Shown here piece after piece: positions 10,069 through 45,725 of a stretch of 64,000 nucleotides of DNA (position 1 is its first letter; each line of letters begins with the position of its first letter). The stretch covers positions 22,118 through 86,117 of the IMG/VR virus record IMGVR_UViG_3300030333_003061, one strand, 5' to 3'. The DNA is from a virus. The notes under the pieces were generated by a model. That model saw only the letters and a list, made by a program, of their open reading frames with translations, did no database searches and was not told where the DNA came from. Made by a program: the position numbers and the translations under genes.

Positions 10069-10444
10069 TCACTTCCTTATATTTCTCTAAATGGTATAGA
10101 TTCACCATTTTTTGATGGAACTCTCCATCGTCTATACATTTTCCGCTTACTATAAATAGTCTGCGTAGATAGCGCAGCAACTCTCTAGGAGTTATTACCT
10201 CATCTATTGCGTCATCAATGGCTCGTATAGTAGCCGAATGTGCTGACACTTTATCATTATAGATATATCTCTCCCACTCATAAACAGTAGGGAGGACATT
10301 CTCTATAGTTTGCACTTCATCTAAGATTGCATCTTTAATGAAGGCAATCTGCTTTGGGGTTTTAATTACATTAAAACTAGATTTCACAAGCACCACCAGC
10401 ACAGGCAGGGTCATTTCCAAAATCTGTATTATCATCATCTTCAT
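10052..10444 (-). CDS. hypothetical protein (true start uncertain, probably downstream of the RNR stop)
   Basis: Open frame filling the gap between RNR and the next gene. The track start overlaps RNR by 68 nt. Confidence 0.45.
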   Translation of the reverse strand: MKMMIIQILEMTLPVLVVLVKSSFNVIKTPKQIAFIKDAILDEVQTIENVLPTVYEWERYIYNDKVSAHSATIRAIDDAIDEVITPRELLRYLRRLFIVSGKCIDDGEFHQKMVNLYHLEKYKEVNEDEM

Positions 10445-16831: not shown

Positions 16832-17174
16832 CTTTGAATGTAATAGAGAAGAATAAGAAGTGTTATGAGGACTCCTTTACCAAAACTAATCTATAAGTGC
16901 ATAATACCTGAGACCTTGGCGTGAATACTTATTGATTAGACAAGGATAGTTTAATTCTTTTTATCTTGGCAAACTCTACTCAATATAACATTAGAAACAC
17001 CAATTACGCATACGGCTGCAATGGAACGGGCAATAAGAAAATACCGTATTCTCCCGTCTAATGTTTTGAGTGTAAATGTGGGCCTTTCACCCAACTTGAT
17101 AGGTTTTCTCCACACTTCCTATTAAGTGATACCTAGGCTGAAAAAAGTTAGTAAAAACCAGCCTTTGGAGTGTA

Positions 17175-17261
17175 TGGTTGCGAGGATGGGATTTGAACCC
17201 ATGAAGCACTACGCACAGAATCTTAAGTCCTGCTCCTTTGACCAAACTCGGATACCTCGCA
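17175..17261 (-). tRNA. tRNA-Leu (anticodon UAA) with encoded CCA
   Basis: Acceptor TGCGAGG/CCTCGCA, anticodon arm CAGGA-CTTAAGA-TTCTG, long variable arm, T arm GGTTCAAATCC, 3' ACCA. Confidence 0.9.
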
Positions 17262-17274
17262 TTAAAGAGTATAA

Positions 17275-17883
17275 TCACTCTTTCAACTGAACTAGAAGTA
17301 ATATCAAATAACCAATTAGGTCTTTGATTACATCTTCATCAGATTCAAGAATATCTTTACCCTGCATAAGTCTATTCAACTTATCATCAATTCTAACCTT
17401 AATCTGTTCTTGTGCATCAGACTTTGAAAAGATTCTAATTGGTGCAATTGCTGAATCACCATATGCTTCATTCTTCTTTAGAAGGAAATACATAATTGAT
17501 TTACATTCATTTTCTATTTGTCTTTGAGTGTTAGTCAATCCTTTACTACTTGTATGTAATACAACCTTTGTAGTAGGTTCCTTCTTTGATTTTGTTCCAT
17601 ATACATCATTAAAATCTTCAGCATATTGCTTATACAATTTCTTGTAATCAACTTCTTTCTTAACCTTTTTCTTTCTTCCTGAACCCTTACTTTTATGCTT
17701 GTAAGGTAATTCACCTTTCTTTTGAAGTGCGTTTATTTTCATATAACAAGCCGCACTACTTCGCTTCAATTTCTTTGCTATTACTGATACTGATGTTCCT
17801 TCATTGAACATTTCAATCAGTGTCTTTATATCTTTGTTTGTCCATTTTTTATTCATTTTAACACCTTTGTTAAATAACTCCAT
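17275..17883 (-). CDS. N-terminal HTH fused to a DUF1599/nucleotide-modification-associated-like domain
   Basis: KWTNKD...IAKKLKRS, then KKNEAYGDS...RIDDKLNRL...EDVIKDLIGY. Confidence 0.65.
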   Translation of the reverse strand: MELFNKGVKMNKKWTNKDIKTLIEMFNEGTSVSVIAKKLKRSSAACYMKINALQKKGELPYKHKSKGSGRKKKVKKEVDYKKLYKQYAEDFNDVYGTKSKKEPTTKVVLHTSSKGLTNTQRQIENECKSIMYFLLKKNEAYGDSAIAPIRIFSKSDAQEQIKVRIDDKLNRLMQGKDILESDEDVIKDLIGYLILLLVQLKE

Positions 17884-18028
17884 TGGAAGGTAATTCCAGC
17901 CCGAACATTCTCATAACTTTCTACTCCCATAAGAATGTTGATTCTGCCCACTTTTCCCCATAAAGGTGGGAACATTCTTACCAATTATCGTTATGATTCT
18001 CGTTTCTTACATTTCCAGCCCTCTGAGG

Positions 18029-18055
18029 GGATGGATGGATGGATGGATGGATGGA
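18029..18055. repeat. (GGAT)n microsatellite, ~6.75 copies
   Basis: ggatggatggatggatggatggatgga. Confidence 0.9.
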
Positions 18056-18646
18056 GTAGTATATAGATATAAGAATAATAAGAATATAATAAATATATAA
18101 TATCTTATCACTTATTCCTACTTTTCTGCCTAACTTCTTACCACTTATGTTTCTACCCCAAAGTAGAAACGAGAAACTGGGCAGATTCTAATCACTTTTT
18201 GGATGCCATATCAATATTAATATTAATATAGAATATTCAATACTGATATTGATAGTAATATAGAATATTAAATTAATATCTACTGACAAGAATACATGTT
18301 ACGGCAGTTACTGATTAACATTGTAACTTATTACGCCATTACATAGGTTTCATTCATATATTGATTAGGAATTAATCGCTTTCTTGAAGCAATTGTAGGA
18401 ATTGACTCTTACAGTATAAGGAGAGTCGTAGACACATATATACTGGCCGCCCTCGCTGATGGCCTGTGCGATATATAACGCAATTCCTTACCATATGGTA
18501 AGAATACTTTGTCATTGAATTACCTGAAAAAAGTGGAAAGGCCGAGAACAGGCGATACATCATGTAAATCATGTTGTAAAGTTTTATACGCCCATTCTCG
18601 ACCCTTCGCGTTAGTCAGCACCGAAAGAACTATTCAGGAGGAAGAA

Positions 18647-19150
18647 TCACTCCTCCTCCGTGTAATCATAATCGCCGCAATCAGCGAGTCCAGCAAGAGA
18701 ACCATCCCATTCTCCCTCTCGGAAGAGTTCTGTTGCTGCCTTTCGTGCCTTTGTTGCTAGGCTGTTTGCATAATCGTCTGCATCTACATATACAGGCGAA
18801 CCCTTTGATTTACCATGCTTTCTTAGCAATGGTTGGGAATATTGCTGTGTTTCTGTGAAAAAGGTGTGTGCTGCTGCACGAATCTCATCACAAGCCGAAT
18901 CTACTACTGCGCGAGCAGCAGCAGGTAAAATACCTTGATTTCCTCTCTTCCAAGGATAACCTGGGTATGGCTTTAACATTCCCTTAATTGAGGTAGTCAA
19001 AGACTCTCTCGTTCCTTCATTGTTATTTCCTGTTTCTACTAGCATTCTTGCTAGTGAAACTACATCTGATGGAATGGCCTGAACTTCGCTATCGCCGTCA
19101 AGCATTCCATTTACCTTTATTACTACTGAATCCCATTCAATTTGTTCCAT
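18647..19150 (-). CDS. hypothetical protein, HGKS-motif paralog 1
   Basis: GGTGAT RBS before MEQIEWD; aligns by eye with the 19646 ORF. Confidence 0.75.
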   Translation of the reverse strand: MEQIEWDSVVIKVNGMLDGDSEVQAIPSDVVSLARMLVETGNNNEGTRESLTTSIKGMLKPYPGYPWKRGNQGILPAAARAVVDSACDEIRAAAHTFFTETQQYSQPLLRKHGKSKGSPVYVDADDYANSLATKARKAATELFREGEWDGSLAGLADCGDYDYTEEE

Positions 19151-19199
19151 AATATCACCTTTGTTGTTTCTTCCTGAGCCTTTCGGGGCTACTATAGGG

Positions 19200-19248
19200 A
19201 GGATATGATACACATATAAAGGGGTCTGAGCAAAGTAGAACCATATGG
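19200..19248 (-). promoter_or_regulatory. cassette promoter (CCATATGG-TACTTTG...TATA-like)
   Basis: Minus strand CCATATGGTTCTACTTTGCTCAGACCCCTTTATATGTG; TATA-like box ~25 nt upstream of the inferred transcript start. Confidence 0.5.
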
Positions 19249-19545
19249 TAATGAAGTAATTTTAAGGTGGATTCTTGAAGGCTTAGGAAAAACGGGCGTT
19301 TTTATTCTCAGCATAGGTAATGAATCCGCACTTGTAGAACAGAGAGTGCTAATTAACATCGGTTATTTTTAACATAAATACTGTCTCACCTTTAGACAGC
19401 GTTAATTAACAACCATATGGTCTCATGGCAGCAAGTGTGCCATGAGAATGAAAGTATAGCGATAGCGTACTAAATATGCCTTAAGGTAGTCATTAATGAC
19501 AAATACGGCTTCGCCTTTATTGGTCATTACCATTCCCTTATGACA

Positions 19546-19605
19546 CCATATGGTAGCATACTTTGTGAAAACTACCTTATAGGTGTCTATAACATATCTA
19601 ATAAC
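19546..19605 (+). promoter_or_regulatory. cassette promoter
   Basis: TACTTTGTGAAAACTACCTTATAGGTGTCTATAACATATCTAATAAC; similar sequences occur at 21176 and 22930. Confidence 0.55.
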
Positions 19606-19645
19606 GGTGGGGCAACACCACAAAAAACACAAGGAAAGTGATATT

Positions 19646-20233
19646 ATGGCTGATTACAGTATGGAAGATAGTAAATGGAACGACAGAAAAGCGACTGTCG
19701 GGGCTTGGTTTGAAGCAAACCCCGATTTAGCCAAAGAGGAAGATAGAGAAGCCCTTGCAAACGGGTTTTTCCGAATTGGCGACAATTACCCAGAAAACAG
19801 AATGAAGTATTGGACTTCGATAACAAGTCTATTCGCTGGACTGAGTAATTCACCATTAGGGCCGGGCCGAGCATCAAACCTCACAGTAGCCCAAAAGTCT
19901 CAATTAGACCTATACATCTCTGAGTATGAAGAAGATGCAGTGGCGCAATATGAGTCAAACCCTAAATTGCGAGCAACCGCAAGACAACACGGAAAGTCTG
20001 GTGGTATGTTTTACCATCTAATGGAGAATGGAGCGCAAGAATACGCAAAGAGCGAAGCGAAGGCTGAGAGAGCATTCCTCATCAAGGCATTCAATTCCGC
20101 CCATAAGGGTGATAACGAGGCTATGTATCTATGGCCTACTATACCGTCAGAAGACGGTGAATCACAGATTCTGGACTTTAATGCTGATGGGTCGCCAAAT
20201 GTGACCTATGTAGCAATACAGGAGGAGGAGTGA
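19646..20233 (+). CDS. hypothetical protein, HGKS-motif paralog 2
   Basis: AGTGAT RBS before MADYSMEDSKW; RQHGKSGG motif shared with the 18647 ORF. Confidence 0.75.
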   Translation: MADYSMEDSKWNDRKATVGAWFEANPDLAKEEDREALANGFFRIGDNYPENRMKYWTSITSLFAGLSNSPLGPGRASNLTVAQKSQLDLYISEYEEDAVAQYESNPKLRATARQHGKSGGMFYHLMENGAQEYAKSEAKAERAFLIKAFNSAHKGDNEAMYLWPTIPSEDGESQILDFNADGSPNVTYVAIQEEE

Positions 20234-20258
20234 TTTAGTGGTTTGTTGCCCCACCACC

Positions 20259-20276
20259 ACCCTTCGGGGTCTTTTT
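20259..20276 (+). terminator. cUUCGg hairpin plus T-tract
   Basis: ACCC-TTCG-GGGT-CTTTTT; the same hairpin occurs at 21445. Confidence 0.6.
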
Positions 20277-21221
20277 ACAAAGTATGACCATATGGAACGG
20301 TTACCAAAGGATTTAGGGGTTTAATGCAATTAAATACTCCGTTGCGACTGATAAGGTAGCAATCTTTGGTTATAGTTCCTTAAGGTATGATAAAAATACT
20401 TTTTATTCTACCATATGGTCATGCGTTAGCATTATGACCAGACGGGGTGAATTTACGGAAAAGTATTGGATTCATATTATTATTGTAGTTATTACTTTTC
20501 AAGTAATCTTTTATTTTATTATTATGTGAATCATATTTTCCTATTACCATATGGTAGAGGGTGTCCTGTGGTATTTTTAGGTTTTTAATGTAATTAAATA
20601 ATCCGTCTAAAGACGATAGTATTGCAAAATACCTGTGGACACTTCGACCAGATGAGGATGTTAAAAAGAATTTTACACTACCATATGGATGATAGTCCCC
20701 GCAGCAACTTAAGGTGTCACTAAGTATCGGAGATACTTACTTATCTCGTATCATGTTCGCTTACTTTATTCAAAACTATATAATATTCATTATTATTATT
20801 TAACTAAAGCAACCTCTCATTCTTCTACTTCGTAGTAACTCGAACCATATGGTAATATGACAGATTGGCGCGAAAGTAATCATCAAAGACAATTGATTAC
20901 TGAGCATGGGCCAATCTAAATTAACCCCAGGTTGTGCTTCTAAACTTCTAATAACCACTCTCTGCTCCGTTGGAGAGTGTCTTCTATTCCTATCGTCATA
21001 TTTGTATTAGACGCTTAGAACCATATGGTCTGATAATAGGTTGAATCTCTATCAACTCTTTACAGTATCCCAAATGAGGATATTCTTCGTAGAAGCGAAA
21101 GACCCGACACTATCGTTCTTCGTAGAGTTAACACTCTTCTTTCACTTCTACTTCAGAATACACCATATGGTTCTATACTATGTGGAAGAACCTCATTAGC
21201 GTCTATATCATATCTATTAAT

Positions 21222-21462
21222 GTCGGAGGCATCCGGCACGATGTGGCTGAATAACACCCTTTCTAACGGTGTAAGGCATGATTATTGGGGTTTAGCGACC
21301 CACCGAGTCGGCTCGACTAAAGAGAAGGCAGGACAACGACCTTAGCGGGTTAATAATCAGTAGGGGCGAGTTAAGCGATATATTAACCAGTATAAAGTTA
21401 GAACTCATGCAACTTATAGGTGAGAGAAATCAAACCCTATCATCACCCTTCGGGGTTTTTTA
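21222..21462 (+). ncRNA. putative structured ncRNA (~240 nt)
   Basis: Preceded by the cassette promoter, followed by ACCCTTCGGGGTTTTTT, no ORF in the track, and internal stems (GTCGGA/TCCGGC, TGATTATT/AATAATCA, GTTAA/TTAAC). Confidence 0.55.
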
Positions 21463-22976
21463 ACAAAGTAGAACCATATGGTGGCAGTGCTGCATTTTAA
21501 TAGAATATTTAATGTAATTAAATTATGCGTGGCAAAATGATAATTATGCTTCAAATGACAGCATGCCGACCTGAAGGAATAGGGATGTTAAAAAGAATTT
21601 TATACTACCATATGGAACAGTGGAGAAACAGGAAGATATGCTTCTGCTTTATGAAGGTTAGTAATTAATGTAATTAATACAATATCTAGCATGTATAATG
21701 AGAATGAAATGACTCTGGGCTTCGTATGATAATAGAAGAACAGATTCATGAATGAACTTATATTGCGGTCATAAAGCGGAGCAGAGGCTTCGCTGTTTAT
21801 CCCTTGTTCCCTACCGCTTTTTACTCCCAAACTGAGGTTACATATAATCTACGAGATATTATCTCTGTTCGTTGCTCATTGCTACCATTCGACACTGCCA
21901 TTCATACTACTTATCATTGCACTCATTCTGTGTCTCATTATACCATTCGCTTAACGAACCCGTTATTAGAACCATATGGATGATAGTCCTTATGGGGGTT
22001 ATCCCCCTATCTCCAGCGAGATAGCCGAATTAAATGCAAAAGACTAAAGCCTCAAAGGAATGAAACTCAAGGGTTTCACCTGCCACAATAATCGTGGCAA
22101 GTTTCATTTCTTTTACATTTACCACTTCCATATGGTTCTGTGGTTTATTCATAGATAAAAAAGATGAGCAATAAACAACAATGTTTTGGTGCAGCAGCAC
22201 CAATAATGCTGCATAAAACTTGTTGTGCGAATCAAAACAATTAAAGAATAAATAGGTTGGATAGGGGTGAACCAGAAAACTTGCGGTATCAAGGGGCTTT
22301 TCGCTTATTAAAGGTATTCATTTCGCTGCGTATCCTTGCGATAAATACCATTAATTGCTGAATTATAAATAAATTATTAATAGTCGCCTCCTTGCTACCA
22401 TATGGCAAGGAGATGATAAAAAAAGGCTCTATAGGGTTACTCAACACTTAAGTAATCAATCAATCTTCATCTTCATCGTATAGCATTTTTTTATTACCTC
22501 CTGAAAGTCCCTATAGGGTTGCTCTTCCTACTGAAGCAACCATATGGTCATACAGTATATACTCTGACCAAAACCCAATGGGGTATATTACTTGTGATAT
22601 TGTCTTGTCTTGATGACATATTGACATTATTGCTATTTAGTTACATTATCACATAACCATATGGAAAGAAACATTCTACTGAGGACAAAGAATAATAGGG
22701 TGATAAGTAGAAACGATGGAGTTATAATAATAACATGGGTGTAGTGAGATGTTGTCTCTTCCCCTTTGGGGTTTAATATACTAATTACATTATGTATCTT
22801 ACCATATGGGTGATAATCCCCAGCAGCGGGTCTTTATCGAAACTTACCAATTAAAGTGCACACGCCGTTGTTTAACAACCCCACCTAACCAAGTGCAACT
22901 TCCTTGGTAAGTTTCTGACCATATGGTGTTACTTTGCTAAACACCCTATATTAGTGTCGTTTACTTATCTATTAAT

Positions 22977-23082
22977 GGTTGGTGGGTGAGAAAGGTGTTG
23001 ACTCCTCAATTCCATTCCATAAACGGCTGAATGGTCGTAGGAAATGGCTCTTTGGGTTGTAGTCCTGTTCTCACCCATCACC
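22977..23082 (+). ncRNA. putative small ncRNA (~105 nt) closed by a terminal stem
   Basis: Cassette promoter upstream; ends pair GGTGGGTGAGAA / TTCTCACCCATC. Confidence 0.5.
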
Positions 23083-23242
23083 GCTTGAATCTTGAGGCTC
23101 TTTACAAAGTTGAACCATATGGTAGAATACTTTGTCAATGATGCCTCAAGCGAGGACTTATTTCATTATGGGTGCTTTATTAAAGAACCCACATACAGGG
23201 CATTTACCGTAGAATTGCAATTCATAAGAGCATACCGTGCAT

Positions 23243-23509
23243 TTACTCACTATCTTTTTCATCTTCTATAACCTCCACTATCATATTTAACAATTCTTCA
23301 TAATCAAATGTTTCACTACAATTACTACAATAATATGACCCGAGTTCTGAATCTAAATAATCCGAATAACCATATTCTAACTGAAAGGAATCTTCTACTT
23401 TAATAGGGAAAACCTCAGTTATTTGAAATACTGTTTCTTCTAATTGTATATCACACGGTTCATTAGGGTCGCTCTTATCTGCTATCTTACATTGAAACTT
23501 ATATTTCAT
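23243..23509 (-). CDS. small acidic Cys-containing protein
   Basis: FQC...PC...YYCSNC; last gene of the 3-gene cassette. Confidence 0.6.
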   Translation of the reverse strand: MKYKFQCKIADKSDPNEPCDIQLEETVFQITEVFPIKVEDSFQLEYGYSDYLDSELGSYYCSNCSETFDYEELLNMIVEVIEDEKDSE

Positions 23510-23703
23510 TCCTCTTCACCTTCTATTACATCCATAATATCCCAATGCTTAAATTGATTATTATTAATATATGTCCAATCGGTTCTTTTGTCTATATTCT
23601 CTATACGATACAATAGAACCCCAACATCTGTCATTACTTCTTCTGTGACTATTACAATTCTATCATTATGCTTATTCTTTAATTTCATTCCTTCTTTAAA
23701 CAT
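23506..23703 (-). CDS. small hypothetical protein (SH3/KOW-like beta pattern)
   Basis: MFKEGMKLKNK...IVIVTE...LYRIE. Confidence 0.55.
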   Translation of the reverse strand: MFKEGMKLKNKHNDRIVIVTEEVMTDVGVLLYRIENIDKRTDWTYINNNQFKHWDIMDVIEGEEE

Positions 23704-23901
23704 TTACTCACCCGACTTCTCAATGTATTCATTCAATGCTACTGATAACTCAGTCATTACTGTGGATAGGTCATCACCAGATACTCTCAATTTATTTATT
23801 GCTAATACCAATGCGCTACCCGACTTCATATGTTTTAATTCAATAACATATTTAGGGTCATTTATTTGCTGAATAATAGTATTCGTTTCCTCAGTGCTCA
23901 T
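23704..23901 (-). CDS. small hypothetical protein
   Basis: Apparently leaderless first gene after the cassette promoter at 23905-23960. Confidence 0.55.
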   Translation of the reverse strand: MSTEETNTIIQQINDPKYVIELKHMKSGSALVLAINKLRVSGDDLSTVMTELSVALNEYIEKSGE

Positions 23902-24151
23902 GTTATAAGGAGAAAAGAAGACCCTTATGAGGTATTAGTAACAAAGTCTACTACCATATGCTTTGTGCGAATTTTTTTCTTTTTCTTTTAATGTGCGTTT
24001 TTTCTTCTCTTGGCTTAATATTTTAATCAGCAGAACTCAAGAATTATATGTTAGGCGTGTGTGGTATAGAATACAGACGGGGCTATACCTCAATTGTTGA
24101 TAATTAACGATAGAGAAAAAAACGCGCCCTGAATGTAAGGAGATACAGATA

Positions 24152-24307
24152 ATGGCTAAATGTGAAGTTAATCAGTGTTATGCAACTAATTGCAGGTATA
24201 ATAGTAATCATCAGTGTATTCGTGACACAGTCATAATTAAAGAGAATGGTGCGTGTGCTTATTTTATTACACCTGAAGATTGGAAGAGTAAAGTATTAAG
24301 AGAATAA
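24152..24307 (+). CDS. DUF1540-like Cys-rich protein (51 aa)
   Basis: Manual translation C-YATN-C-RYN-SNHQ-C...GACAYF; AGGAG RBS. Confidence 0.55.
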   Translation: MAKCEVNQCYATNCRYNSNHQCIRDTVIIKENGACAYFITPEDWKSKVLRE

Positions 24308-24405
24308 TATCTTATTCTGGGAATGCATTGAATAAAAGAAATAAAAAAACGCAAGTGGCAAATAAATTACGGGCCAAATTTTCGGTTTTAATGGTTGAAT
24401 ATATT

Positions 24406-24654
24406 ATGACATGGTATTCAGTAGTTAGGAAATCGTCTATAGGAGATAAGTTCCTTAAAAATAGAGTTCGTATATACTATGAAAGGTTAAGATTGGCTAA
24501 ATGGATTAGAGATATGGACATTAATAGGCAAAATAAAAGTATTACAGTATATGTATATCCTGATACCGTTGGATTATTAATTGGAATAAGAGGAGAAACA
24601 GTAAATAAGTTATCAGAATCCATGGGTTGGACAATTAATATTAGAGGAAGATAA
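24406..24654 (+). CDS. KH-domain protein with MxW tag
   Basis: Starts MTWYSVVRK; VYPDTVGLLIGIRGETVNKL is a KH GxxG loop. Confidence 0.65.
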   Translation: MTWYSVVRKSSIGDKFLKNRVRIYYERLRLAKWIRDMDINRQNKSITVYVYPDTVGLLIGIRGETVNKLSESMGWTINIRGR

Positions 24655-44393: not shown

Positions 44394-45725
44394 GTGATTA
44401 TTATGGTTAAATTAACAGAAGAGGCTCTTAATGATGAGATAGAAGAGAATGAAGATGAGACTGAGATATTAGAAACATTGAAGCCTAAAGTCCAAGAATT
44501 AGAAAACCTTAAAGAAACACTAAATAGAGGATGGTTAGATAATAAACCAATTAGAGACCACGAATCTATAGCAAAGGAATATTCCGATAGATTCAATTTA
44601 AATTTAACTGATGCAAAGAAGCAATTATTTTCATATCCTGAACAATATGAGATTCAAGGAAAAGATATACCTTCAGTCATTAAAGAAATGAGAAATTATA
44701 GAAGGACACTAAAAGGGGAAACTAAAATTCAGTTTACTAAATCAATAGATAATTTAATTGATGGATACACTGACCATTTAGAGAAGTGTATGGATAGTAT
44801 TTATTGGATTAGAAAATATAAAGTCCCCTTAACCCAAATGAATAATAGTGAATATCATCTTAGAAAATTAAGCACTATAACAAAGGAAGAGGATAAGAGA
44901 AATATAATAGATTTATTATGTAAACATTGGGAATTACAATTGAATAGAAAACACTTAGATTATGGCCCTGAATATGCACTACTTACTAAAAAAATGAATA
45001 TAACTAAAAAGGCATATAAGAAGGCTTTGAAAGATACAGTTATAGGCAGGTCACCTAAAGAGGAGATTCGTAAGAGTATTCTAAAAGCGGTATGCGAAAA
45101 TCCAGGAATATCATCTAGACAAATCCATGATTCATTACCTAAAAAGTTGTATAATAGAACCTCTCCAATAATTATATCTAAACTTGCTAAAGACCAAAAC
45201 ATAACACAAGTAGATGGCGCGTATTATAAAATTAATGATGATATTAAGAAAAACATTTGGGCTTATACAGCAGCATTCATAGATTCTGATGGTTATATTA
45301 CAATGGATAAAAACCATAATCCTAGAGTTGGATTAGTAGCAACAGGAAATAGAGGAAAAGCATTTATGATGGAAATGCATAAATCATTAGGTATGGGTAG
45401 ATTACATTTAGACCAAAAATCTCCTCAAGATACAAGACCCGTAAATAGATTGAATTTTTATTCTGCAAAAGATGTAGAAAAATTACTTAAAAAATGTAGG
45501 CCTCATTTTAAAATGAAAGGTTCTAATGCGGATGTTTTATTAGAATTAATTAAAATAAAGAAACATAATAAAAAGGAAGATTGGTATAATCAAAGAAAAG
45601 ATGAATTATTTAAATTAATGAAATATTATAATCACAGTGATAATAAGAAGTTTAACTGGAATGAATGGGATATTGATATAAATGATATTAACAAACTTGA
45701 AGCGAATAGTAAAATGGATTTCTAG
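44394..45725 (+). CDS. LAGLIDADG endonuclease-domain protein with long N-terminal helical/HTH region
   Basis: WAYTAAFIDSDGYI motif; ENPGISSRQI HTH just upstream. Confidence 0.7.
   Translation: MIIMVKLTEEALNDEIEENEDETEILETLKPKVQELENLKETLNRGWLDNKPIRDHESIAKEYSDRFNLNLTDAKKQLFSYPEQYEIQGKDIPSVIKEMRNYRRTLKGETKIQFTKSIDNLIDGYTDHLEKCMDSIYWIRKYKVPLTQMNNSEYHLRKLSTITKEEDKRNIIDLLCKHWELQLNRKHLDYGPEYALLTKKMNITKKAYKKALKDTVIGRSPKEEIRKSILKAVCENPGISSRQIHDSLPKKLYNRTSPIIISKLAKDQNITQVDGAYYKINDDIKKNIWAYTAAFIDSDGYITMDKNHNPRVGLVATGNRGKAFMMEMHKSLGMGRLHLDQKSPQDTRPVNRLNFYSAKDVEKLLKKCRPHFKMKGSNADVLLELIKIKKHNKKEDWYNQRKDELFKLMKYYNHSDNKKFNWNEWDIDINDINKLEANSKMDF

Follow-up and report, generated by a model that had tools for sequence, protein, structure and literature searches.

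Is a short palindrome that recurs between the small transcription units of a viral genome there for the shuffling of these units, or is the shuffling a by-product of a repeated protein-binding site? The question is raised by an array at positions 18491-23961 of a 64,000-nt stretch of DNA (the window; all positions refer to it), which comprises bases 22118-86117 of the 86,117-bp IMG/VR virus record IMGVR_UViG_3300030333_003061, judged 92% complete. A first-pass annotation had picked out five intervals of this array as expression cassettes with inward-facing ends. These five intervals are probably autonomous expression modules in a palindrome-jointed array of a magrovirus-like archaeal virus. 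Each module opens with an end arm, made up of half of ACCATATGGT and a short hairpin whose loop contains ACTTTG. A TATA-like box CCTYATAWR comes next, transcription would start about 26 nt downstream of it, and the cargo is followed by a GC hairpin with T-run and by the mirror-image arm. At the palindrome, modules have been flipped, moved, gained, and lost, both between related viruses and within a natural population.

The palindrome is the 8-mer CCATATGG. It occurs 22 times in the window, with 21 of the copies in 18491-23122; shuffles yield 0.81 expected copies and a maximum of 4. The whole 86-kb record carries a single copy outside the cluster. The extended word CCATATGG-N-TACTWTG, which had been reported for the interval ends, has 8 matches against 0 expected, and all of them are where they had been placed: at 18491 (+), 19248 (-), 19546 (+), 20295 (-), 21163 (+), 21481 (-), 22919 (+), and 23115 (+). 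The base preceding the site is A at 20 of 21 sites and the following base is T at 14 of 21, hence the full joint is ACCATATGGT. One-mismatch copies within the array are limited to one at a unit boundary (CCATATGC, 23954-23961) and two inside units, so that 21 exact sites stand against a single one-mismatch copy at a boundary. The 8-mer is presumably kept exact because a protein recognizes the palindrome, and the joining would be the work of virus-encoded enzymes. As the core reads the same on both strands, one site can be joined to any other in both orientations, and this explains flips as well as deletions.

Neighboring modules are separated by exactly one palindrome each, and the site-to-site spacing is irregular, ranging from 117 to 750 bp. 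The array sits at the divergent junction between a minus-strand replication arm on the left and a plus-strand structural arm on the right; this strand switch and the minimum of the cumulative GC skew coincide with the cluster. Approximately 16 of the 21 units have no called open reading frame (ORF) of at least 60 amino acids (aa). The array and its five hairpin-armed intervals are as follows, with CDS denoting the coding sequence:

18491-23961, no strand assigned: the whole array, with 21 exact CCATATGG sites and one terminal variant, about 21 units
18491-19248, minus strand: u1, encoding the F0a protein p188 (CDS 18647-19150 from ATG), with promoter arm 19231-19248, TATA-like CCTTTATATG at 19213-19222, and terminator-side arm 18491-18511; evidence from aligned sequence and RNA contigs
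19546-20295, plus strand: u4, encoding the F0b protein p216 (CDS 19646-20233), with arm 19546-19565, TATA-like CCTTATAGG at 19575-19583, start at about 19606, hairpin 20259-20270 with T-run, and arm 20278-20295; evidence from RNA contigs and a whole-unit inverted match to the relative L156
21163-21481, plus strand: u11, with a promoter arm, a manA-like RNA at 21222-21450, hairpin 21445-21456 with T-run, and arm 21464-21481
22919-23122, plus strand: u20, ORF-less, with a promoter arm, TATA-like CCTATATTAG, and arm 23105-23122
23115-23961, minus strand: u21, with ORFs 23158-23262, 23243-23509, 23506-23703, and 23704-23901, TATA-like CCTCATAAGG (plus strand 23923-23932), arm CAAAGT at 23942-23947, and the variant site CCATATGC at 23954-23961

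The five intervals are real but represent only the hairpin-armed subset of approximately 21 units, the remaining ones having plain sites or other arm types. Two of them need amendment. The right end of the fifth is a unit boundary with the imperfect site CCATATGC. The same interval holds four ORFs instead of the three genes first counted: A 34-aa ORF (23158-23262, minus strand) with a zinc-ribbon-like CxxC...CxxC pattern is added at the cassette end. And the interval 21163-21481, noted as having no ORF, does have a cargo in the form of the manA-like RNA.

The arms, lined up from the window and five relatives, fall into two classes: promoter arms and terminator arms. A promoter arm reads CCATATGG-T-N(3-6)-ACTTTG-N(6-11)-ACC-TYATAWR. 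A terminator arm has the same word and then, toward the unit, a terminator's A-run and GC hairpin; along the sense strand, the order is hairpin, T-run, and A-CAAAGT-N-CCATATGG. The arm is more than the sequence word described at first, since the spacer pairs with the sequence past ACTTTG (GGTNNN...N'N'N'ACC). Among 288 arms from many contigs, 51 contain the complement of their own hexamer, compared with a mean of 6.4 and a maximum of 17 for permuted partners. This excess involves 19 different hexamers—the stems of the arms covary, whereas the loop word is fixed. In the window, the stems at armed sites measure 5-6 bp.

Directly after the arm hairpin follows CCTYATAWR, which by its sequence resembles an archaeal TATA box, and the distance from the site to this TATA-like box is near-constant at every armed promoter. 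The promoter-like block that several cassettes had been said to share is borne out as repeat family D9, and the hairpin with T-tract said to be identical in two cassettes is ACCCTTCGGGGT, family D2, present at 20259-20270 and 21445-21456 with a T-run each. Site 23115 indeed bears both arms, namely the extended word and the left arm CAAAGTTGAA. The units are archaeal-type transcription units with a TATA-like box approximately 26 nt before the start, a cargo, and a hairpin with T-run; the description as self-contained units with their own promoter and terminator, lying in both orientations, agrees with both the arm classes and the RNA. In four ORF-less units, a further word, TTAATGYAATTAA(A/T), recurs 33-57 nt past the left site. 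It perhaps represents a second type of promoter or operator and was found in none of the approximately 180 related loci compared. Its copies are as follows:

20320-20333, 20584-20597, 21508-21521, and 21664-21677: TTAATGYAATTAA(A/T) within the array
10361-10374, minus strand: TTAATGYAATTAA(A/T) after the ribonucleotide reductase gene

Transcription was judged from RNA contigs (not reads) of two metatranscriptome runs of one marine sample; as contigs cannot prove ends, they support one transcript start and not a start map. This start is that of u4, where the box at 19575-19583 predicts initiation at G 19606, 26.5 nt from the box center. Two RNA contigs begin at 19606, extending to 20223 (depth 189) and to 20058 (depth 80). 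For u1, the RNA contigs 18608-19176 (depth 52) and 18602-19159 were found; the one reaching 19176 fits the first TATA-like box, with a start at about 19190, and excludes the second, with a start at about 19167. The manA-like unit u11 yields an RNA contig of depth 119. Three cargoes are expressed: p188, p216, and the manA-like RNA. All high-depth RNA contigs (50-190) start and stop inside units, without crossing sites. For the operon of u21, the box center lies approximately 26 nt before the ATG (23901, minus strand), and therefore its mRNA is likely leaderless.

The order and orientation of the units, which would have told against mobility had they been constant across relatives, are not fixed. 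In approximately 15 relatives the two arms of the genome are collinear, yet the order and orientation of the modules between them differ. At the level of genes, five relatives (viral contigs G001-G005) were mapped; each has collinear flank genes and one cluster of 12-16 sites per genome. The maps, normalized with the neighboring helix-turn-helix (HTH) gene on the minus strand, read:

window: a(-) b(+) manA(+) F6(-)
G002: a(-) b(-) manA(-) F6(-)
G003: a(-) F6(+) manA(+) b(-)
G001, G004, and G005: a(-) manA(+) b(+) F6(+)

In G002, the cassettes b and manA are individually flipped with their order kept. The unit u1 adjoins the HTH gene in the same relative orientation in 13 mapped relatives. The small ORF-less units have no DNA match in the more distant G001-G005 and match only closer relatives; in these metagenome relatives, with p188 at 90-93% identity, whole units could be mapped at the level of DNA:

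window: u4+ u7+ u9+ u10+ u11+ u13+ u14+ u15+
L153: u10+ u4+ u11- u14+
L156: u13- u15- u14+ u11- u4- u7- u9-
L160: u11+ u13+ u14- u4+
L162: u13- u11+ u4+ u14-
L159: u13- u4- u10-

The flanks 17000-19303 and 23701-24415 are collinear in the closest relatives, and the matches in between end at the palindromes. The whole of u4 (19544-20295) matches L156 at 11217-10464, inverted and with its ends at sites, and the whole of u11 (21162-21481) matches L156 at 10472-10138, also inverted, with one site common to both units. The match of u14 (21971-22138) is found in five relatives, in both orientations, and ends at its two sites. Altogether, 23 of 60 match ends lie at most 3 nt from a site edge, compared with 6.9% for random positions.

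Similar changes occur in natural populations, as judged by DNA contigs (not reads) of two other samples mapped to the window. One contig joins 22537 to 22655 and thereby exactly removes the unit between the sites 22540 and 22657 (u17); 10 nt at the join can be assigned to either side. The contigs cease to resemble the window at 19544, 20407, and 20410, beside the sites 19546 and 20411, and 40-52% of the DNA contigs continue into unlike sequence. A DNA contig from another sample (depth 28, with 22 nt on the short side) skips 77 nt, 19565-19643; this gap removes the promoter and 5' leader of p216, and the contig possibly stems from a relative. The contigs of the public runs compared showed no joint of a circular DNA, although this does not argue that such circles are absent. 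A scan of genome contigs for two sites 117-147 bp apart gave no magrovirus-type array among the 120 matches listed, which does not speak against arrays in hosts; its pairs were chance pairs, CRISPR repeats (L299, L193), and coding repeats. The maps, the matches ending at sites, and the loss within a population together identify the palindrome as the place of change, and the first proposal of exchangeable cassettes holds. The two units added here are:

21972-22135, no strand assigned: u14, ORF-less, 164 bp, 73-89% identical in five relatives, in both orientations
22540-22664, no strand assigned: u17, the unit without a copy in one population variant

What, then, is the palindrome for? In the foremost alternative, ACCATATGGT is the operator or insulator of one DNA-binding protein of the virus, with the protein p202 as candidate, and the shuffling is incidental to some 20 identical repeats, as has been proposed for the promoter-early stem-loop (PeSL) cassettes of T4-type phages. 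This account is possible, though we hold it less probable than joints between modules. The near-constant distance between the site and the TATA-like box of every armed promoter suits an operator, the bracketing of both unit ends is insulator-like, and the high-depth RNA contigs stay inside units. However, the sites also bound ORF-less units without a promoter block and follow terminators where no promoter faces inward. Moreover, 21 exact copies with essentially no degenerate ones would be unusual for operators, and homology ends within 3 nt of the repeat far above chance, and repeats of 8-10 bp are very short for homologous recombination.

The candidate binder is encoded next to the array:

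17275-17883, minus strand: p202, with a GcrA/winged-helix-like HTH N-domain and a conserved C-domain; candidate site binder

p202 is the array neighbor on the replication-arm side in all five relatives mapped by gene family—a placement that also speaks for the operator. Compared with solved structures, its N-domain is similar to the DNA-binding domains of GcrA and winged-helix proteins (E 5e-4 to 3e-7). The predicted fold is poor overall (predicted local distance difference test, pLDDT, of 66), with only the N-terminal HTH confident. Among its 802 homologues, 37 diverse ones show a nearly invariant C-terminal half (KNxxYGDS...RIDDKLNRL...DLIGYL), and this C-domain is also present in more distant viruses without the array. 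The loci of these distant relatives hold no arrays and no other enriched palindrome and consequently say nothing on a covariation of protein and site.

The PeSLs are the closest described system to the array. They are composites of a terminator stem-loop and an early promoter that are repeated in the hyperplastic regions of T4-type phages and give rise to insertions, deletions, replacements, and mini-circles, the latter having been shown physically (PMC2839356, PMC4122927). Common to both systems are a stem-loop and promoter composite repeated between the small non-essential genes of a plastic region, indels and replacements between relatives that map to the repeats, and units with their own promoter and terminator. 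The element shared here, however, is an exact palindrome of 8-10 bp, whereas that of the PeSL is a sigma-70 promoter of approximately 50 bp; the promoters here are of the archaeal TATA type, with the TATA-like box 26 nt before the RNA contig start. Furthermore, the units here occur in both orientations and flip individually, are mostly ORF-less, and form one array per genome.

As for the enzymes that would do the joining, the record encodes two ATP-dependent ligases, an XPF/ERCC4-type nuclease, a PD-(D/E)XK nuclease, and an I-CreI-like LAGLIDADG protein. The last of these is the candidate for cutting:

44394-45725, plus strand: 443-aa LAGLIDADG-like protein, between large terminase and portal; candidate palindrome-specific nuclease

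Enzymes with a single LAGLIDADG motif work as homodimers; their sites are palindromic or nearly so, and their cuts leave 3' overhangs of 4 nt. The 443-aa ORF carries one such motif, of consensus YTAAFIDSDGYITMD, and AAFIDSDG does not vary across 23 sequences. The homologues of the ORF number more than 1000, with 55-98% identity for the best 120. The profile of its C-domain aligns to I-CreI and I-CvuI weakly (E 0.003-0.1) but over the whole domain, PHROGs labels it as a homing-type endonuclease, and Pfam LAGLIDADG_1 and LAGLIDADG_3 do not match it. A LAGLIDADG gene has been named at the same place in magroviruses, where it was assigned by profile-profile searches (PMC5434244). The likeness to I-CreI comprises the single motif and the aligning profile; the sites of I-CreI, however, measure approximately 22 bp, and a genome has just one, within the enzyme's own gene or beside it, whereas here 10 bp are conserved in some 20 copies and the gene of the candidate lies 21 kb away.

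The gene and the array occur together. Of the 18 long records chosen by the LAGLIDADG gene alone, without use of the palindrome, 17 have a cluster of 4-24 sites. The eighteenth (G013; 93 kb, rated 99% complete) has the gene and a single site, but the contig breaks off precisely at the strand switch, the place expected for the array; hence, it is no counter-example. The array seems to break assemblies, so that completeness estimates can hide its loss. Conversely, the gene is present in 17 of the 19 records selected through the palindrome word. G025 and G041, which lack it, were discarded as counter-examples, being unrelated viruses without a portal match and with scattered sites at control level. 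The gene and the array therefore co-occur in all 35 informative records, this one counted, and none of the records compared has one without the other, nor is there a variant palindrome that could covary with the protein.

It is conceivable, if doubtful, that a domesticated homodimeric nuclease (44394-45725) cuts its own genome at ACC/ATAT/GGT and that the ligases rejoin the modules in any order and orientation. Cutting there would leave identical, self-complementary 4-nt ends at all of the approximately 20 joints, and the ATP-dependent ligases of the virus would rejoin these ends irrespective of order and orientation, allowing for reshuffling, exchange, and capture of accessory expression modules. 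The hairpin arms with their ACTTTG loop would mark or regulate which joints serve.

Several points weigh against modules jointed by a dedicated palindrome. The binder and the nuclease proposed for the site are candidates, and the co-occurrence of candidate enzymes and array is confounded by shared ancestry: Shared descent alone would give the same pattern, which renders the support for the nuclease circumstantial. The plain sites share only 8-10 bp, and microhomology or replication slippage at a repeated protein-binding site could produce the rearrangements with no dedicated system. The hairpins in the window are short (4-7 bp) and clear at only about one third of site sides; stems of at least 5 bp are found at 17% of all site sides, compared with 5% at control GGT positions. 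Finally, u20 and most ORF-less units have no RNA contig in the two runs of the one sample. Shuffling may be the purpose of the sites or the by-product of a repeated protein-binding site.

A system akin to integrons or shufflons, with a dedicated tyrosine or serine recombinase or a HUH nuclease acting on folded sites, had been suggested at the outset and is improbable. It would suit the inverted ends, the arms able to form hairpins, in which the loop is conserved and the stems covary, and the fact that units flip and disappear at the sites. Yet the first remark that no recombinase is visible extends to the whole 86-kb record, in which PF00589 (Phage_integrase), PF00239 (Resolvase), PF01797 (Y1_Tnp), and PF02407 (Viral_Rep) have no match at E<=1, other HUH families not having been searched; nor is any such recombinase or HUH family among the Pfam families listed for 88 ORFs. 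For hairpin elements of the IS200/IS605 or Rep (HUH) type, the HUH gene expected of them is accordingly missing with respect to PF01797 and PF02407. Integron cassettes are promoterless, lie in one orientation, and are read from a common promoter. The array resembles them in holding exchangeable cassettes with imperfectly conserved, foldable sites in between, but it has no IntI-type integrase (PF00589, E<=1), its cassettes carry their own promoters and lie in both orientations, and its joint is an exact palindrome and not attC. In shufflons and invertible segments—Rci, Hin/Gin/Cin, and the int1 region of phiCh1—segments between inverted repeats lie in either orientation. Here, no invertase is found, whole transcription units flip without swapping gene ends, and the units also change in order and number.

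Iterons of a replication origin, partition sites, or packaging sites are equally improbable. Their position at the strand switch and the cumulative GC-skew minimum, with one cluster per genome, would fit, but the irregular spacing, the placement exactly at unit boundaries, the variation from 4 to 24 sites between relatives, and the scrambled unit content do not. Just outside the array, (GGAT)n is repeated at about 18033-18055, and 18203-18266 consists of an AT-rich 32-bp sequence in two tandem copies that contain a palindrome; this latter stretch is more origin-like than the array itself.

Equally little speaks for an RNA-level signal, with palindromes at which a long transcript of the array would be processed or would pair: Each copy could pair with every other, site 18491 is crossed by an RNA contig of low depth, and a circular 135-nt form is suggested in u11, but RNA contigs at a depth of 50-190 begin and end within units, the circle junction (21314/21448) is not at a site, and with promoters inside the left site and T-runs before the right one, the sites lie outside the main transcripts.

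The circular form is an observation in its own right. A 165-nt RNA contig of u11 (depth 119) reads 21355..21448 and then 21314..21384 on the plus strand; its length is that expected of a 135-nt circle with k-1 added (k=31). A portion of the manA-like RNA may thus exist as a circle, the alternatives being a tandem DNA duplication in a strain or a library artifact. The 3' joint of the circle falls on the final base of the terminator hairpin's 5' stem arm, directly ahead of the TTCG loop, and the junction is away from any palindrome site. A bulge-helix-bulge-type processing motif is not evident at the junction, either by eye or in the predicted fold (z -0.9).

The RNA of u11 matches Rfam RF01745 over its full length with 44.0 bits (E 3e-10), below the gathering score of 55.2; it is therefore termed manA-like and is no certified member. 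It recurs in site-bounded units of three relatives with 32-46.5 bits. The manA motif was described as an element of 5' untranslated regions from marine metagenomes, T4-like cyanophages, and two gamma-proteobacteria (PMC2864571), whereas the manA-like RNA here is a stand-alone unit. The proteins p188 and p216 are paralogues of one family with a conserved HGKSGG motif, present in two copies in most mapped relatives. No close relatives of p216 were found in viral contigs. Its predicted fold is confident (pLDDT 91.5); a Foldseek search of the PDB gave nothing at E<=0.001, a wide structural search gave no informative match (Z<=6.2, for the N-terminal three-helix part only), and a viral structure library gave one unnamed homologue only. 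The 5' end of the p216 transcript, GGTGGGGCAACA (19606-19617), is complementary to 12 nt at 20244-20255, just before the terminator hairpin. The 12-bp closing stem of u20, GGTGGGTGAGAA/TTCTCACCCATCACC, resembles this end pairing of u4.

The genome surrounding the array is magrovirus-like, as far as gene content and layout can tell. Magroviruses measure 65-100 kb and combine a halovirus-like structural block with an archaeal-type replication block; they encode two ATP-dependent ligases, one of them in the structural block together with a LAGLIDADG gene (PMC5434244). All of this recurs in the 86-kb record with its portal, PolB and RFC, ligases, and LAGLIDADG-like ORF. The portal is nearest to Haloarcula tailed viruses, with 29-31% identity. 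The left arm encodes a family B DNA polymerase, an RFC-like clamp loader, a TFIIB zinc ribbon, ERCC4 with HhH, a PD-(D/E)XK nuclease, ThiF, MazG, a PemK/MazF-like protein, ribonucleotide reductase, and an ATP-dependent ligase; the right arm encodes the large terminase, the portal, the second ligase, a prohead protease, and a capsid protein. The match to the PemK/MazF-like toxin family (E 4e-16) and that to ERCC4 with HhH belong to two different left-arm ORFs, outside or at the start of the window. Megablast of the region against the phage GenBank collection gave no match.

In the literature searched, the palindrome-jointed array is undescribed. The magrovirus description makes no mention of repeats, palindromes, or promoters (PMC5434244); later magrovirus literature mentions repeats only as assembly and terminal repeats, with promoters and such arrays absent, and the 8-mer itself, searched in full texts, appears in the matches listed in unrelated contexts only.

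The array first noted is confirmed and its first interpretation partly supported; it is a case of promoter-terminator cassette shuffling. Few viruses of the surface ocean are as abundant as magroviruses, and the units described here provide a first concrete promoter and terminator model for them, with one start supported by RNA. The array represents a defined hot spot for the exchange of accessory genes and small RNAs with a sharp joint sequence. If virus enzymes do cut and rejoin this joint, this would be viral module shuffling without a classical recombinase. Through the invariant palindrome, the accessory genes of uncultured archaeal viruses could be located and their pool compared.

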